Sequence record: MT150133.1
Strand: one strand, 5' to 3'
From: Enterobacteria phage vB_EcoM_IME540
DNA: 64,000 bases
Part shown: positions 11,200-19,810 of the stretch, one piece after another
Layout of the letters: each line of letters begins with the position of its first letter
Position numbering within the stretch: the stretch's first letter is position 1
Position numbers and translations under genes: made by a program
The notes under the pieces: generated by a model
Database searches by the model: none
What the model was told of the DNA's origin: nothing
Seen by the model: only the letters and a program-made list of their open reading frames with translations

Positions 11200-11789
11200 T
11201 TACGGCATTCCTCAATAAACTCATTTAAATTCCGTTTGATTTTACCTTCGTCGTAAAGACGTTGTTGACGACGTAAACGCCATGGCATTTCAATAGCCAA
11301 GCACCAAATACTTAAAGCAGCGCCAGCTGTGAAAAGGTTCATTAATCCAGCACCAATAATAGTTCGTTCTAGCGCATCATTCCAGTTAGCATCGATTAAA
11401 AATGAACTCAACACTAACATTGGAAGTAAAGTAATAAAATATGCTACAACATATCGTCTGAACGTAAGCCATTCAGTATCGATGAGCTTAGCCTTTCCAT
11501 CTTGGAGACAAATATACTTATCGTCAGTGCGGGTGATTTTCTTTACTGGTTGCCAGCCGTTTACGATATAGCCCATTTTATATTCCTCAATTAAAAGCTG
11601 TTTCATTTCGGCAGTACAACCTGACCAATCTATTGTACTGGCTGAAATTCCTTCATCACCGTCATCGATATTTCGCCAGGACTTTTTAATAATCATATGT
11701 TCACCACTTGGGATAATAATTCCAGCATTTTCCGACCGACGGATGAAGTTTGTATCAATACCCATACAACCGGGTTCATAAAGGGCCAT
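11196..11789 (-). CDS. membrane protein (197 aa), soluble N-domain plus 2 C-terminal TM helices
   Basis: Hydrophobic stretches VVAYFITLLPMLVLSSFLI and IIGAGLMNLFTAGAALSIWCLAI. C-terminal tail KRNLNEFIEECRK. Confidence 0.6.
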   Translation of the reverse strand: MALYEPGCMGIDTNFIRRSENAGIIIPSGEHMIIKKSWRNIDDGDEGISASTIDWSGCTAEMKQLLIEEYKMGYIVNGWQPVKKITRTDDKYICLQDGKAKLIDTEWLTFRRYVVAYFITLLPMLVLSSFLIDANWNDALERTIIGAGLMNLFTAGAALSIWCLAIEMPWRLRRQQRLYDEGKIKRNLNEFIEECRK

Positions 11790-12478
11790 TACCAGCCCTC
11801 CATAGGGAATTCCAGATATACTTGAGCATTAACGCGGATTTCATTAGTAATCTTTTTAACTCGGTCGGTATTACGAGACACACGACCAAACCAGCGCCAA
11901 CCGTTACTTACTGCACGAGAACCTGTATGCCATGTCTGCCAATCAAACTGGAGCAACGTGCGGTCGGGGGCATCCCACTTGGTTAATTCATTAGACTCAA
12001 TTTTTTCCAGAACTTCTTTATGCCACTGGCGATAGATAAGTTCGCCTTCAGGAATCTGACTGAATTGTGCAGTTCCGGTTGCAAAATGAGTAGGACACAC
12101 ATCAGCGTTAACAAGACCAAGAATATGTTCAGAATGGTATCGAGGATTATCATAATCAGGTTGCCCTGCGGTAATAAAGTGTTGACCCACCGGAATATCC
12201 GGGCGTGGTACATCATCATGGTGGAAGCCTGGAATTGCAGGGTACCAGCCAGGCATTAACATGTGTACACGGGAATCAAATACAATATCAGGGCCACATT
12301 GCCAATCTTCAGGCAGGTTTTCAATAAAGCTACGAGTAATAGGACCGCCATGTTTATGAGCAAAATAAGCATCGCAATTAAAGAACATAGGCTCATTTTT
12401 AATCATATCATTACTGATATCTTGAGCAAAACCACCTACTGCACGAGCTTTAGAATTAAAAATTTTTGGACCGTTCAT
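11789..12478 (-). CDS. putative 2OG-Fe(II) dioxygenase-fold protein (229 aa)
   Basis: HxD-type motif PGFHHDD, a distal His in WQTWHTG, and R-x-S (GRVSR) about 14 aa later. Motif-level call only. Confidence 0.4.
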   Translation of the reverse strand: MNGPKIFNSKARAVGGFAQDISNDMIKNEPMFFNCDAYFAHKHGGPITRSFIENLPEDWQCGPDIVFDSRVHMLMPGWYPAIPGFHHDDVPRPDIPVGQHFITAGQPDYDNPRYHSEHILGLVNADVCPTHFATGTAQFSQIPEGELIYRQWHKEVLEKIESNELTKWDAPDRTLLQFDWQTWHTGSRAVSNGWRWFGRVSRNTDRVKKITNEIRVNAQVYLEFPMEGW

Positions 12479-13762: not shown

Positions 13763-14002
13763 TTAAATTTCAGCGACGTAATCGTTATGCAATTCCCACA
13801 TATCATCAGAATTATTCTTAATGATAGGAATTATCTCATTAGAGATTTCTTCAGCATAAGGGTCATTGATACAGTGGGCATCTTCAAAACGAACACCGTA
13901 ATCAGACTTCTTATAAGAGAAGCCATAAATCTTTTTAAACTTGGCGCGAGTAATGCGTACCGGTTCATTAGACTTATCGGACATCGGAGCGTAATACCAC
14001 AT
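13763..14002 (-). CDS. hypothetical protein (79 aa)
   Basis: Track ORF with a strong GAGGAG SD. First gene after candidate promoter 14030-14059. Confidence 0.55.
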   Translation of the reverse strand: MWYYAPMSDKSNEPVRITRAKFKKIYGFSYKKSDYGVRFEDAHCINDPYAEEISNEIIPIIKNNSDDMWELHNDYVAEI

Positions 14003-14029: not shown

Positions 14030-14059
14030 ATAGTAACATGATTTTCTAGAGTTGTACAT
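14030..14059 (-). promoter_or_regulatory. candidate early promoter (ATGTAC -18 nt- TGTTACTAT)
   Basis: Extended -10 TGTTACTAT and a degenerate -35. Overlaps the stop of ORF 14046-14375. Confidence 0.45.
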
Positions 14060-14375
14060 CACTTCTGCAATATTCTAAAAATAATTTATCATTGTCTACT
14101 GTATCCCAACGACGCCAAGACGGGTTCCAGACCAAAGCGTTGTCACCACAATCATTGAGCTTAAAATGGTCGTAGTACATAGCTATGTGTCTAGTCTCGT
14201 CACCAGAGAACCCCAGTATAGGCTCACCGTGGGTGTGATACATATGATGGTGCATTGAGAGGTCGCATTTGTAAAACATCTCACGTTTACCACGAACGAA
14301 CAAGAAGGCCTGTCCATTCATATAGAATTCTTTATTTGTTTTCAAAAGATATTTGAATACTGAATCTTTATGCAT
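14046..14375 (-). CDS. hypothetical His-rich protein (109 aa)
   Basis: Trimmed to ATG 14375 (TAGGAGG SD). Carries the cluster SMHHHMYHTHGE. Confidence 0.55.
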   Translation of the reverse strand: MHKDSVFKYLLKTNKEFYMNGQAFLFVRGKREMFYKCDLSMHHHMYHTHGEPILGFSGDETRHIAMYYDHFKLNDCGDNALVWNPSWRRWDTVDNDKLFLEYCRSDVQL

Positions 14376-14405
14376 AAGTCCTCCTACCACATCCATGTGG
14401 TTAAA

Positions 14406-14633
14406 TTATTTTCCTAACGAAATACGAGTAGGTTTTTTACCGAAATAGTCTTCATAAGAACCATCTAAACGACCTGCTTTAGACCGACAATATGAATCGT
14501 ACTTTTTGTAATAAGTCATCTCAGTATTATAACGCGGGTGTCTATCAGCCATAATAATACTTAACGGCCAACCTTTGGCATAATCGCGAAGACCATTTAT
14601 TTTACGAATGTATCTTTTCTTTAATTTTAGCAT
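14406..14633 (-). CDS. hypothetical basic protein (75 aa)
   Basis: Track ORF. Its ATG overlaps the last codons of the upstream paralogue (TCATGCTAA). No clear SD, so translational coupling is presumed. Confidence 0.45.
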   Translation of the reverse strand: MLKLKKRYIRKINGLRDYAKGWPLSIIMADRHPRYNTEMTYYKKYDSYCRSKAGRLDGSYEDYFGKKPTRISLGK

Positions 14634-14851
14634 GAGCTCGGATACCAGATTTTACCATCGGCCTGAGCAACGAAGGTGCGTCCAGCTTCTTCACCATAAC
14701 AAGAGCTATTCAGCCAATCTTCGAGACGAACTTCACCGTCATAATCGTCGAGCTCAACACCAAAACTTTGAGCAGAAGCCATATCTTTTACTTTCTTATA
14801 CAGTGCAGCCAGTTCAAGTGCGGCTTTTTCTAATTCATTAATATCAGTCAT
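14627..14851 (-). CDS. C-terminal-Cys paralogue 1 (74 aa)
   Basis: Track ORF trimmed to ATG 14851 (AAGGTGA SD). MTDINELEKAALELAALYKK...EDWLNSSCYGEE...GKIWYPSSC-stop. Confidence 0.6.
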   Translation of the reverse strand: MTDINELEKAALELAALYKKVKDMASAQSFGVELDDYDGEVRLEDWLNSSCYGEEAGRTFVAQADGKIWYPSSC

Positions 14852-14861
14852 TTTTATCACC

Positions 14862-15074
14862 TTAGCAAGACATAGAGGATGTAAACCAGAAACCTTCACC
14901 ATCTGGGATACCGTAATCATCACGGGCCCATTCATAATCATCATATTCCGGATTCTTTGGAGAAATGTATTGTCCACGACCAGAAACATGGAACTCTTCA
15001 CCCGTTTCGTCAGCCACGGCCTGGCCTTTACGTACTAATTCGCGGATTTGTTTTTCAATTTCATCAATAGTCAT
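14862..15074 (-). CDS. C-terminal-Cys paralogue 2 (70 aa)
   Basis: MTIDEIEKQIRELVRKG...GEGFWFTSSMSC-stop. Confidence 0.6.
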   Translation of the reverse strand: MTIDEIEKQIRELVRKGQAVADETGEEFHVSGRGQYISPKNPEYDDYEWARDDYGIPDGEGFWFTSSMSC

Positions 15075-15083
15075 TTTATTTCC

Positions 15084-15365
15084 TTAACATTCAGAAGAAG
15101 AGGACACCCAACCGCCATTTTCTAGGCTGGTGGTGTAATCATGCTGGTTTACAATAGCATACTGGGCTTCACCGTATTCTTCCCAGTGGGCAAGGTCGGC
15201 TTTCAAGGCGCCAGGAGAATAATAGTCACCGCCCATACCGCGAGCAGGGTATATATTAAAATGAGTCTCATATTTGTTAGCAATTTCCTCGGCACGACGA
15301 ATAGCTTTATGGATATCATTTACTGCGTCAGCCAGCTCTTTATTTTTACGGTAATCATTCATCAT
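15084..15365 (-). CDS. C-terminal-Cys paralogue 3 (93 aa)
   Basis: AAGGAA SD. ...DIHKAIRRAEEIANKY...GMGGDYYSPG...NGGWVSSSSEC-stop. Confidence 0.6.
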   Translation of the reverse strand: MMNDYRKNKELADAVNDIHKAIRRAEEIANKYETHFNIYPARGMGGDYYSPGALKADLAHWEEYGEAQYAIVNQHDYTTSLENGGWVSSSSEC

Positions 15366-15374
15366 AGCGTTTCC

Positions 15375-15665
15375 TTAGCACATTGCCGAAGAGGAGACCC
15401 AAGCACCAACTGTAACGACACCGTTTTCAACTTCACCGCCATTGTTTTCAATTTCATCTTTAAACCATTGGGAGCATTCATAACCGACAGGATAATATGT
15501 ACGGCCTGAACCATAACCACCGGTACTGAATTCAATACCATATTCATCTGCGATTTCTTCACATTTGGATTCGATGGTGCCTACTTTACCCAGCAGGTCA
15601 TAGATAGCCTTTTCTGCGGACAGCGCGCTGTTGTATTCAGGGATTTCAATTTCAATTTTATTCAT
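15375..15665 (-). CDS. C-terminal-Cys paralogue 4 (96 aa)
   Basis: ATGA overlap with the upstream gene. ...AEKAIYDLLGKV...GGYGSGRTYYPVG...VGAWVSSSAMC-stop. Confidence 0.6.
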   Translation of the reverse strand: MNKIEIEIPEYNSALSAEKAIYDLLGKVGTIESKCEEIADEYGIEFSTGGYGSGRTYYPVGYECSQWFKDEIENNGGEVENGVVTVGAWVSSSAMC

Positions 15666-16015
15666 GATTTACATTCCTTAATAAAGGTTTCAAGGTCATT
15701 ACGTTTAGTTTGTTTTACATACTCATTATAATTAACCATAGCTAAAGCATATCTCTTTTTACGCGGCTTGTTTATTTTATTAGTTTGGGCAATATCAAAG
15801 ACCCATGGGATAAAAAATCCTATTAAAGCCGGAACCCAAATCCATGCAAGGCTCATATCTTCAAACGGATGGCGAGGCATACCATTAATAATCCCACCGA
15901 CAAGAAATCCAATTATCCCTGCAGTCATACTAGTAGCAATGCCGAGGAATAAGGAAATAGCTATATCATAATCTGCTAATGCGTAACCAGGGTCGGTTTT
16001 ACTAGGCTTATGCAT
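15662..16015 (-). CDS. membrane protein (117 aa, about 3 TM helices)
   Basis: Trimmed to ATG 16015 (MHKPSKTDPG...). Hydrophobic segments IAISLFLGIATSMTAGIIGFLVGGII and LAWIWVPALIGFFIPWVF. Tail KRNDLETFIKECKS. Confidence 0.6.
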   Translation of the reverse strand: MHKPSKTDPGYALADYDIAISLFLGIATSMTAGIIGFLVGGIINGMPRHPFEDMSLAWIWVPALIGFFIPWVFDIAQTNKINKPRKKRYALAMVNYNEYVKQTKRNDLETFIKECKS

Positions 16016-16544
16016 TTTGAACCTCTTTAGCGTATTCGCGACATTCAGTAATAAAACGATTAAGTTTACGTTGTTGTTTACGAATCTCTGATGTATACTC
16101 ATTGGCTAAAATAATAAGCTCATCTTTATCGTAATTTTTAATATCCGAATAACTCGGGCGGCGGTCGACCATACCAAAGTGGTCACCATTTTCTAACATC
16201 AAATAGCATACTAAATGGTAATCATCGTCGGCATCAACAAGCTGTTTATAATCGCTTGGTTCATTTAAAGAGTATACTGAATAGCGTAGCCCAGCGAATT
16301 CCACTCGTTGAATAGCCAGATTTACGTCAATAATTTCTAAAGCATCTGCAAAAGAAAGGTCCTCAGCTAAAGCAAAGATAAAGGGTAATTTGGTAGTATG
16401 CCCACGGCTAGATGTTCTGCTTAAGAAATCGTTTGAATAACCTAGGTCTTGGCGAATTCTATAAAGAACTGCATTAGTTTCATGTGAAAGACCACTATGT
16501 TTAAACCAATCAATATTTGATATCAGGTCGTCGTATAAACTCAT
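16008..16544 (-). CDS. hypothetical protein (178 aa)
   Basis: Track ORF with GGAGGAGAGGAG SD. The C-terminal region contains RKLNRFITECREY. Confidence 0.6.
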   Translation of the reverse strand: MSLYDDLISNIDWFKHSGLSHETNAVLYRIRQDLGYSNDFLSRTSSRGHTTKLPFIFALAEDLSFADALEIIDVNLAIQRVEFAGLRYSVYSLNEPSDYKQLVDADDDYHLVCYLMLENGDHFGMVDRRPSYSDIKNYDKDELIILANEYTSEIRKQQRKLNRFITECREYAKEVQNA

Positions 16545-17229: not shown

Positions 17230-17259
17230 ATTATACCCTGTCCTCTGAGGTTTGTAAAC
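17230..17259 (-). promoter_or_regulatory. early promoter (GTTTAC -18 nt- TATAAT) with inverted repeat around the -10
   Basis: Minus strand GTTTACAAACCTCAGAGGACAGGGTATAATGTCCTC. The arms GAGGAC/GTCCTC bracket the -10. Confidence 0.7.
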
Positions 17260-18952: not shown

Positions 18953-19027
18953 TGGTATCCCGCCCTGGGATCGAACCAGGACCGCAAACTTAGAAGGATC
19001 GTATGCTATCCATTACACCAGCGGGAC
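18953..19027 (-). tRNA. tRNA-Arg (anticodon UCU), CCA encoded
   Basis: GTCCCGCTGGTGTAATGGATAGCATACGATCCTTCTAAGTTTGCGGTCCTGGTTCGATCCCAGGGCGGGATACCA. The cloverleaf folds by hand: 7-bp acceptor stem, T arm CCTGG-TTCGATC-CCAGG, anticodon loop CTTCTAA. Confidence 0.9.
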
Positions 19028-19739: not shown

Positions 19740-19810
19740 TGGCCCTGGGTGGAATCGAACCACCATCCAGCGATTATGAGTCGCTCGCTTGACCGTCCAG
19801 CTACAGGGCC
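19740..19810 (-). tRNA. tRNA with anticodon CAU (elongator Met, or Ile if lysidine-modified)
   Basis: GGCCCTGTAGCTGGACGGTCAAGCGAGCGACTCATAATCGCTGGATGGTGGTTCGATTCCACCCAGGGCC(A). 7-bp acceptor stem, anticodon stem AGCGA/TCGCT with loop CTCATAA, T arm GGTGG-TTCGATT-CCACC. CCA not encoded. Confidence 0.85.

Follow-up and report, generated by a model that had tools for sequence, protein, structure and literature searches.

Several nucleotidyltransferases (NTases) of the Pol-beta fold nucleotidylylate small proteins: GlnD acts on PII, MntA on HepT, and CitX/MdcG on a Ser of the citrate/malonate acyl carrier protein (ACP). The MenT toxins share the fold, and their catalytic residues are T39, D41 (D43), K137 and D152 (PMC10435456). 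A jumbo-phage survey that takes up phage NTases covered RlaP, CCA-adding enzymes and Thg1; the family described here is not among them. In this work we analyzed 64,000 nt of Enterobacteria phage vB_EcoM_IME540 (MT150133.1), the whole of which is referred to below as the window. It carries on the minus strand a tandem array of four small genes whose products all end in a Trp-Ser-Ser-Cys tail, and downstream of the array a gene for a predicted Pol-beta-superfamily NTase. Judged from gene content and order in other phages, the small family and the enzyme form a conserved, phage-restricted two-gene module.

The module resembles MenA-MenT and AbiEi-AbiEii in that the gene of a small partner is followed directly by that of a predicted Pol-beta-type NTase whose C-terminal domain is helical. 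Among characterized solved structures, the one closest by Foldseek is MenT1 (8an4), essentially tied with the uncharacterized 5uvd, and the MenT pattern [S/T]..DxD...K...D appears to have invariant counterparts here, with D25/D27, K125 and D193/D195 as the candidate residues. Unlike MenT/AbiEii, the module is phage-encoded and essentially phage-restricted, and its enzyme has no DUF1814 match and carries extra conserved His/Cys motifs (YxHP, DHDxxH, KVCTSITSGWFR). The partners also differ: they are Cys-tailed, come in arrays of one to six proteins and are unrelated to MenA1, MenA3 or AbiEi. GlnD-PII, MntA-HepT (a type VII toxin-antitoxin system) and CitX/MdcG-ACP offer a possible analogy, an NTase fold acting on a hydroxyl of a small partner whose gene is adjacent, although none of these families matches either protein here and their acceptors are Tyr, or Ser within a fold, unlike the C-terminal Ser-Ser-x-x-Cys tail that would be modified in this case. 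RlaP (PF10127) is likewise a phage-encoded Pol-beta NTase of unsettled function, and two of the distant relatives of our enzyme have an RNA ligase gene nearby; the conserved neighbor in the T4-like, rV5-like and jumbo clades, however, is the tail-bearing array and not an RNA ligase.

We found no paper in the full-text literature for phrog_899, phrog_2141, DUF7275/DUF7277 or representative locus names, nor for the linkage of the two genes. The four family names are catalogue labels without function, and both halves of the module are still annotated as "hypothetical" or DUF despite their wide spread. Phage T4 has neither gene, which may be the reason that the module was never studied. An understanding of it could bring to light a novel protein modification or a novel means by which phages control an RNA- or tRNA-directed NTase, and would give function to several genes in many phages that are candidates for therapy.

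Linkage of the Cys-Tailed Family to the Enzyme Gene

A gene of ~300 aa with DUF7277 and DUF7275 lies directly downstream of the small genes in two divergent metagenomic loci of the family. When IMG/VR was scanned with a degenerate DNA pattern for YGMGGTYYP, the enzyme gene was immediately downstream on the same strand in 12/12 family-anchored loci with enough flank, including jumbo-phage contigs of 355-389 kb. Anchored on the enzyme, 71 of 80 IMG/VR loci contained at least one small member within 4 kb by the family hidden Markov model (HMM). Three further loci (L072, L076, and L090) have divergent tail-bearing open reading frames (ORFs) and L045 has one by a looser motif, giving a total of about 74-75 of the 80 loci with a tail-bearing ORF. 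Nearly all of these small members are upstream of the enzyme gene and on its strand, and the gap is often 1-100 nt. The preliminary description of the array, made from the window sequence alone, had overlooked this conserved partner.

By tblastn the enzyme was found in 734 of about 50,700 deposited phage genomes. Among 185,579 species-representative genomes it occurred in only five contigs of metagenome-assembled genomes (MAGs), four of 73-167 kb and one 2.3-kb fragment, which are probably phage; tail-bearing ORFs stand upstream of the enzyme in all five. The hosts of phages with the module include E. coli, Klebsiella, Enterobacter, Aeromonas, Acinetobacter, and Pseudomonas. In T4 no ORF with the tail was found. 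The pairing persists in T4-like, rV5-like, Pseudomonas, and jumbo-phage contigs, with nothing else nearby conserved. Across loci the array holds one to six tail-bearing ORFs of 52-172 aa; the longer ones have unrelated N-terminal extensions, in which no recognizable domains were found, yet keep the module of helix, "yGlxF" and tail. We consider a functional partnership of the small proteins and the enzyme highly probable, and such a terminal tail, strictly linked to an apparently active NTase, points to a specific biochemical relationship, that of substrate or inhibitor.

The Array of Four Small Genes in the Window

The coordinates of the array and of its surroundings are listed in Table 1. 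The intergenic spacers are 9-10 nt, and an AAGG Shine-Dalgarno (SD) sequence overlaps each preceding TAA stop (TGY-TAA-GG). The membrane-protein gene upstream ends where the 96-aa gene begins, stop and start overlapping in ATGA, an arrangement suggestive of translational coupling. The products are acidic (pI 4.1-5.0), and the terminal Cys is the sole cysteine of the 70- and 93-aa members. The 74-aa protein has a second, internal copy of the motif (DWLNSSC-YG, 14699-14716), and this W-x-x-S-S-C-Y-G copy recurs in the P1 subtype of other phages. The positions, spacers, tails and cysteines agree with the preliminary description, which had given four minus-strand genes at these positions with short spacers, their own SDs, Trp-Ser-Ser-Cys tails, the internal DWLNSSC, and a terminal Cys that is the only one in two members.

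Table 1. Positions of the module genes, the encoded tails and neighboring features in the window, and of stretches in three loci with distant enzyme homologues (numbered within those loci).
Feature	Position	Strand	Remarks
Conserved partner gene, 319 aa	12784-13743	-	DUF7277+DUF7275; 0.9 kb downstream of array
Three small ORFs between array and enzyme	14406-14633, 14046-14396, 13763-14002	-	own PHROGs
P1-type small protein, 74 aa	14627-14851	-	phrog_899, E=1.7e-9
P1-type tail, short class W-Y-P-S-S-C	14630-14647	-	C-terminus ...GKIWYPSSC
P2-type small protein, 70 aa	14862-15074	-	phrog_899, E=2.9e-14
P2-type tail, FWFTSSMSC	14865-14888	-	C-terminus ...GFWFTSSMSC
P3-type small protein, 93 aa	15084-15365	-	phrog_899, E=7.3e-20
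P3-type tail, GWVSSSSEC	15087-15110	-	C-terminus ...GGWVSSSSEC
P4-type small protein, 96 aa	15375-15665	-	phrog_899, E=3e-22; orthologues in several genera
P4-type tail, AWVSSSAMC	15378-15401	-	C-terminus ...GAWVSSSAMC
Membrane protein, two-TM-like	15662-16102	-	phrog_2330; position of T4 e.3/e.4
178-aa protein	16008-16544	-	phrog_8788; position of T4 e.5; C-terminal motif ...ECREYVK in common with e.5
Best sigma-70-like promoter match, TTTACA-17-TATAAT	17230-17258	-	11/12; consensus scan
tRNA-Arg(tct)	18953-19027	-	upstream of e.6-like gene
tRNA-Met(cat)	19740-19810	-	upstream of e.6-like gene
Distant-homologue locus, L099	4627-5322		
Distant-homologue locus, L100	4406-5657		
Distant-homologue locus, L101	3705-4001		

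Among the 577 ORFs of the window (stop-to-stop, >=40 aa, 64 kb), exactly these four match W.{1,2}SS.{0,2}C$; the number expected from amino-acid frequencies is ~0.003 ORFs, and 100 shuffles gave 0 matches. All four also match phrog_899, at profile positions ~133-221 of 221, and because they match one independent profile they are related beyond composition. Ungapped orthologue pairs from Dhakaviruses gave ratios of nonsynonymous to synonymous substitution (dN/dS) of ~0.02-0.4 for the array genes, which at the sequence level is the signature of real coding genes under purifying selection; some values for the 70-aa gene (dN ~0.6) came from gapped matches treated as ungapped and were discarded.

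The window phage is of the Dhakavirus type, T4-like, and its 13.8-16.6 kb region is 93-97% identical to PSD2002, LHE83, MX01, QL01, and Bp7. The equivalent stretch of Bp7 lies between homologues of T4 e.2 and e.6. Most Dhakaviruses have five array members. The window is without the 65-aa one (...GTSWVSSSYEC), as are QL01 and Bp7, so that the copy number varies within the genus; where present, the fifth member sits at the P3/P2 junction, corresponding to window positions 15074-15084 (e.g. L002, 4285-4482). The P1-P5 types recur in other T4-like genera (L028-L047), and the paralogues are therefore old and maintained rather than products of recent tandem diversification. The idea of tandem diversification in a hyperplastic early region thus did not survive the comparison: the types are common to genera, under purifying selection, and fixed beside the enzyme gene.

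The Cys-Tailed Family

A profile search of 1.84 billion representatives (E<=1e-3) gave at least 386 clusters of the family at 50% identity. Cys is the terminal residue in 166 of 178 relatives, so the near invariance of the Cys reaches far beyond the window phage. It is penultimate in seven of the remaining 12; the other five end before the tail (P0034 and P0127), are a weak partial match (P0178), or have other tail variants. In an alignment of 144 sequences the W, S, and C of the tail are invariant, and the consensus reads helix-helix ...EAExIADEyGxxFxF..YGMGGTYxP....W....GGWxSSSxxC; the 93-aa P3-type protein, with the loop ARGMGGDYYSP, is the nearest to it among the four. The tail falls into a long class, W-x-[S/A/P]-S-S-x-x-C with a W-to-C distance of 7, and a short class, W-x-[S/P]-S-[S/N]-C with a distance of 5. 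Of 191 unique Cys-ending locus ORFs, 142 have the longer distance of 7 and 40 the shorter one of 5; this set was picked by HMM or motif, so that these statistics are partly circular. We defined the family by either tail class at the C-terminus or one residue from it, and all four window proteins carry such a tail. Trp and Ser-Ser before an invariant Cys at the very C-terminus is a rare arrangement.

The AlphaFold2 (AF2) model of the 96-aa member has a pLDDT of 90.9 and is a helical hairpin packed on a small sheet; the confidence of the last ten residues is 72, against >90 elsewhere. Of the structural checks proposed earlier, the monomer model was thus confident, while a solved relative did not emerge: Foldseek against the Protein Data Bank (PDB) found no matching fold for the model (best E 2.3), and nothing but coiled-coil noise (E>0.3) came out when PDB sequences were searched with the family profile. 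Against the viral models of BFVD, the small-protein model matched only uncharacterized phage homologues, from RB69, Yersinia TG1, Aeromonas CC2 and 31, Acidovorax ACP17, and an rV5-like phage. None of the four small proteins had a significant match in Pfam, NCBIfam, or PADLOC. The preliminary description did not recognize the family, and indeed it is catalogued only as phrog_899, of unknown function. A marginal HMM match (E 0.009, filters off) was seen to T4 tk.1 (62 aa, L104 11346-11534, ...EISSEYGDAETYYEL...), which is without the tail; it could be a relative that has degenerated, or the match could be due to chance.

The Partner Is Predicted To Be a Pol-Beta-Type NTase

The Pfam matches of the 319-aa partner are strong (E=8e-77 and 2e-26; 258 and 93 bits against a gathering cut-off of 27), and the protein is also a member of phrog_2141. 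Its start was set at the second Met pair (MMLVIGSRAL), following the homologues. In 33 homologues of 43-89% identity the invariant residues are G6-S7, D25-x-D27, E69, K125, H128, R165, Y172-x-H-P, Y190..D193-H-D..H198, P-A-Y, GVYEE-x-CVLALER, and KVCTSITSGWFR. GS, DxD, K125, H128, and H194-D195 are kept in nearly all of the 80 enzyme-anchored loci, with the exception of a deletion variant (L025) and a truncated ORF (L074) and with a few substitutions at E69, D193, C243, and W279. The dN/dS of the gene is 0.03-0.09. From this conservation the enzyme appears to be active.

The AF2 model of the partner (pLDDT 92.5) consists of an N-terminal alpha/beta domain (beta-alpha-beta) and a helical C-terminal domain. 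Its best Foldseek match in the PDB is the NTase-like protein 5uvd (E 4.5e-3), followed closely by a weak match to MenT1 (8an4_A; E 4.8e-3, probability 1.00, TM-score 0.34 by query and 0.51 by target). Cid1, PolX, and CCA-adding enzymes appear further down the list, as do unrelated nucleoside phosphorylases (E 0.04-0.4). The protein thus shows the Pol-beta-superfamily pattern hG[GS]...D-x-[DE] with a third acidic residue on an alpha/beta fold. No NTase Pfam model was matched; DUF1814 (PF08843) and PF10127 were absent at E<=10 from all 33 homologues, and a PDB sequence search gave no match. An assignment to RlaP was rejected for lack of a PF10127 match in Pfam. Fold and motifs together predict a Pol-beta-superfamily NTase, which is nearest to the MenT/AbiEii type and at most a putative member of it.

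We also looked for co-variation of Cys243 and Cys272 of the enzyme with the terminal Cys of the partner. Ten loci in which partners are retained have Tyr or Met in place of C243, and C272 was part of the enzyme-anchored search pattern, so that its invariance is ascertainment; co-variation is at this level a lead only. In an enzyme sub-clade (L068, L069, L074, and L093) D193 is replaced by Q or E and W279 by R, and no tail-bearing ORF was detected within 2.2 kb upstream in these four loci; loss of the partner may go with the change in the enzyme there. In vB_EcoM_005 (MK295203.1 / NC_055783.1; L025) a 102-nt deletion in the enzyme gene removes the DHD motif, and the small ORFs and the enzyme carry the labels "prohead assembly scaffold protein," "major capsid protein," and "tail completion protein," which look like misannotation.

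Proposed Mechanism and Alternative Explanations

The best explanation, to which we give a probability of roughly 0.4, is that the small proteins and the NTase-like enzyme work as a module in which the tail is recognized as an acceptor. The four window genes would be the small-protein half of a two-component module and the 319-aa protein its other half. Each small protein, an acidic helix-hairpin with a small sheet, would present the invariant C-terminal tail as the element recognized by the enzyme; the tail would enter the active-site cleft as the tRNA 3' end does in MenT or CCA-adding enzymes, and a tail nucleophile, a Ser hydroxyl or the terminal Cys, would accept a nucleotidyl group. The several paralogues would serve a single enzyme, each as an alternative substrate or carrier. 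Physical interaction, the tail as contact element, and nucleotidylylation are steps that we infer, and the specific acceptor-substrate chemistry is put forward tentatively. An acceptor substrate is favored because one enzyme gene accompanies several proteins whose bodies vary and whose tail is constant, because the constant part consists of nucleophilic residues on the less rigidly modeled end, and because there is precedent for Pol-beta-fold enzymes that nucleotidylylate small partners. One enzyme with many constant tails is what one would see with a recognition or acceptor tag, unlike with a 1:1 inhibitor. Of the roles suggested earlier for the tail, a modification site or docking peptide stands as the most sensible, whereas host takeover or anti-defence is disfavored by the PADLOC scans and by the linkage.

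In its fullest form the acceptor reading would have a MenT-like NTase covalently nucleotidylylate the W-x-S-S-x-x-Cys-COOH tails of several small acidic proteins that act as effectors or carriers, as a dedicated protein-tagging system of large virulent phages (T4-like outside Tequatrovirus, rV5-like, and jumbo). This is possible though doubtful. If true, enzyme and tails would be a novel pair of enzyme and substrate, and phage infection would involve a type of C-terminal protein modification that is new.

Several points weigh against an acceptor role of the tail. The MenT1 fold match is weak (E about 5e-3, TM-score 0.34/0.51) and no NTase Pfam model is matched. MenT-type enzymes target tRNA rather than proteins, and some of the distant enzyme homologues have RNA ligase or tRNA genes nearby; given this precedent and these neighbors, RNA may be the substrate of the enzyme and the small proteins regulators only. 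In the window, array and enzyme gene are not adjacent but have three unrelated ORFs between them. The order of small gene upstream and NTase gene downstream equally fits an antitoxin-toxin layout, and nucleotidylylation of Ser does not by itself explain a Cys that is strictly terminal.

The main rival to the acceptor reading, which we regard as unlikely, takes the small proteins for antitoxin-like inhibitors or timers that bind and block a potentially toxic MenT/AbiEii-like NTase, which might for instance nucleotidylate the 3' ends of host tRNAs; nucleic acid would be mimicked by the acidic body, and the catalytic site plugged by the C-terminal tail. The low pI of the small proteins and the gene order, a small acidic protein upstream and the NTase downstream and often nearly abutting, suit this explanation. 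So does the fact that the closest characterized solved relative of the enzyme is the MenT1 toxin, which is neutralized by the short, upstream-encoded MenA1 (PMC10435456). However, one inhibitor would suffice, and here up to five or six different tail-bearing proteins accompany one enzyme gene, with their types kept across genera; MenA1 binds via a helix and not a C-terminal tail, and no sequence or fold likeness of the small proteins to known antitoxins was found. The constant tail, variable bodies, and several paralogues per enzyme would be accommodated by specificity or adaptor subunits, i.e. hetero-oligomers with the enzyme that steer it to different RNA (tRNA) or other targets with the tail as common docking peptide, and the tRNA and RNA-ligase genes near distant enzyme homologues are in keeping with such a role. 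We find it distinctly improbable, as the small proteins are acidic and have no recognizable nucleic-acid-binding features, and a docking peptide has no obvious need for an invariant Ser-Ser and a strictly terminal Cys.

The view of the preliminary description, in which the array encodes independent host-takeover or anti-defence effectors acting by thiol or metal chemistry (an oligomer that binds metal by the terminal Cys, or a Cys that captures a host target covalently), would make the adjacency of the enzyme a matter of synteny only. The genes do belong to a block of the early region that T4 is without, and they encode small, acidic proteins with the Cys as the only conserved potential ligand. 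We nevertheless hold this to be slightly more improbable again than adaptor subunits: linkage to the enzyme persists across T4-like, rV5-like, Pseudomonas, and jumbo contigs, selection is purifying and not diversifying, and a scan of eight proteins gave no PADLOC or anti-defence match (0 families). Very improbable is a sulfur carrier with a swinging-arm Cys (cf. SoxY, DsrC, TusE) that holds a persulfide or other covalent adduct. The conserved Cys at the tip of a less confidently modeled C-terminal segment would be apt for it, but no fold or sequence likeness to SoxY, DsrC, or TusE was found, the module has no sulfurtransferase, rhodanese, or E1-like gene, and its partner has an NTase fold. We give the least credence to precursors resembling ribosomally synthesized and post-translationally modified peptides (RiPPs), in which Ser would be dehydrated and Cys added to form a lanthionine or AviCys-type C-terminal ring. 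Although the Ser-Ser-x-x-Cys-COOH tail resembles lanthipeptide or AviCys cores and several precursor paralogues per enzyme are typical of RiPP loci, by Pfam there is no LanB-, LanM-, LanC-, or LanD-like protein, protease, or exporter in the ORFs near the array or in related loci, and the small proteins are folded domains of 65-170 aa with a confident AF2 model rather than leader-core peptides.

Distant Homologues and Neighboring Genes

Streptomyces, Gordonia, KVP40-like Vibrio, and roseobacter phages encode distant homologues of the enzyme, without a Cys-tailed partner. In three of the four loci examined, the homologue is flanked by small ORFs, one to three in tandem, which belong to another, weakly inter-related family with a common C-terminal ...VEV.P..T.T.Y motif (Table 1); the exception is roseobacter phage DSS3_PM1. 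RNA ligase or tRNA genes are near the enzyme in three of the four (ligase in L099 and in L102, the roseobacter phage locus; a tRNA cluster in L100). The combination of an NTase and small proteins in tandem may thus predate the Cys tail.

The three ORFs between the array and the enzyme gene belong to PHROGs of unknown function and were found in only 5-12 of the 80 enzyme-anchored loci; by this distribution they are lineage-specific insertions outside the conserved core. The adjacent membrane protein, which had been put forward as a pairing partner of the small proteins, is present in 9/80 loci, close relatives only, and did not hold up in that role. The membrane protein and the three intervening ORFs were both rejected as parts of the system, since they are confined to close relatives. 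The e.5-like and e.6-like genes are limited to close relatives as well. Two genes downstream of the enzyme is a 229-aa ORF (phrog_1843, 11789-12478, minus strand) without a Pfam match, which occurs in 23/80 enzyme-anchored loci, again in close relatives only. It has an HxD...H-like pattern (PGFHHDD ... TWHTG) reminiscent of cupin or 2OG-oxygenase metal sites.

No minus-strand terminator-like site was found between the best promoter match and the enzyme gene, and a single leftward transcription unit is therefore possible; the promoter scan was by consensus only, with a site count no higher than in shuffles. The position of the two tRNA genes of the window agrees with that of the T4 tRNA cluster.

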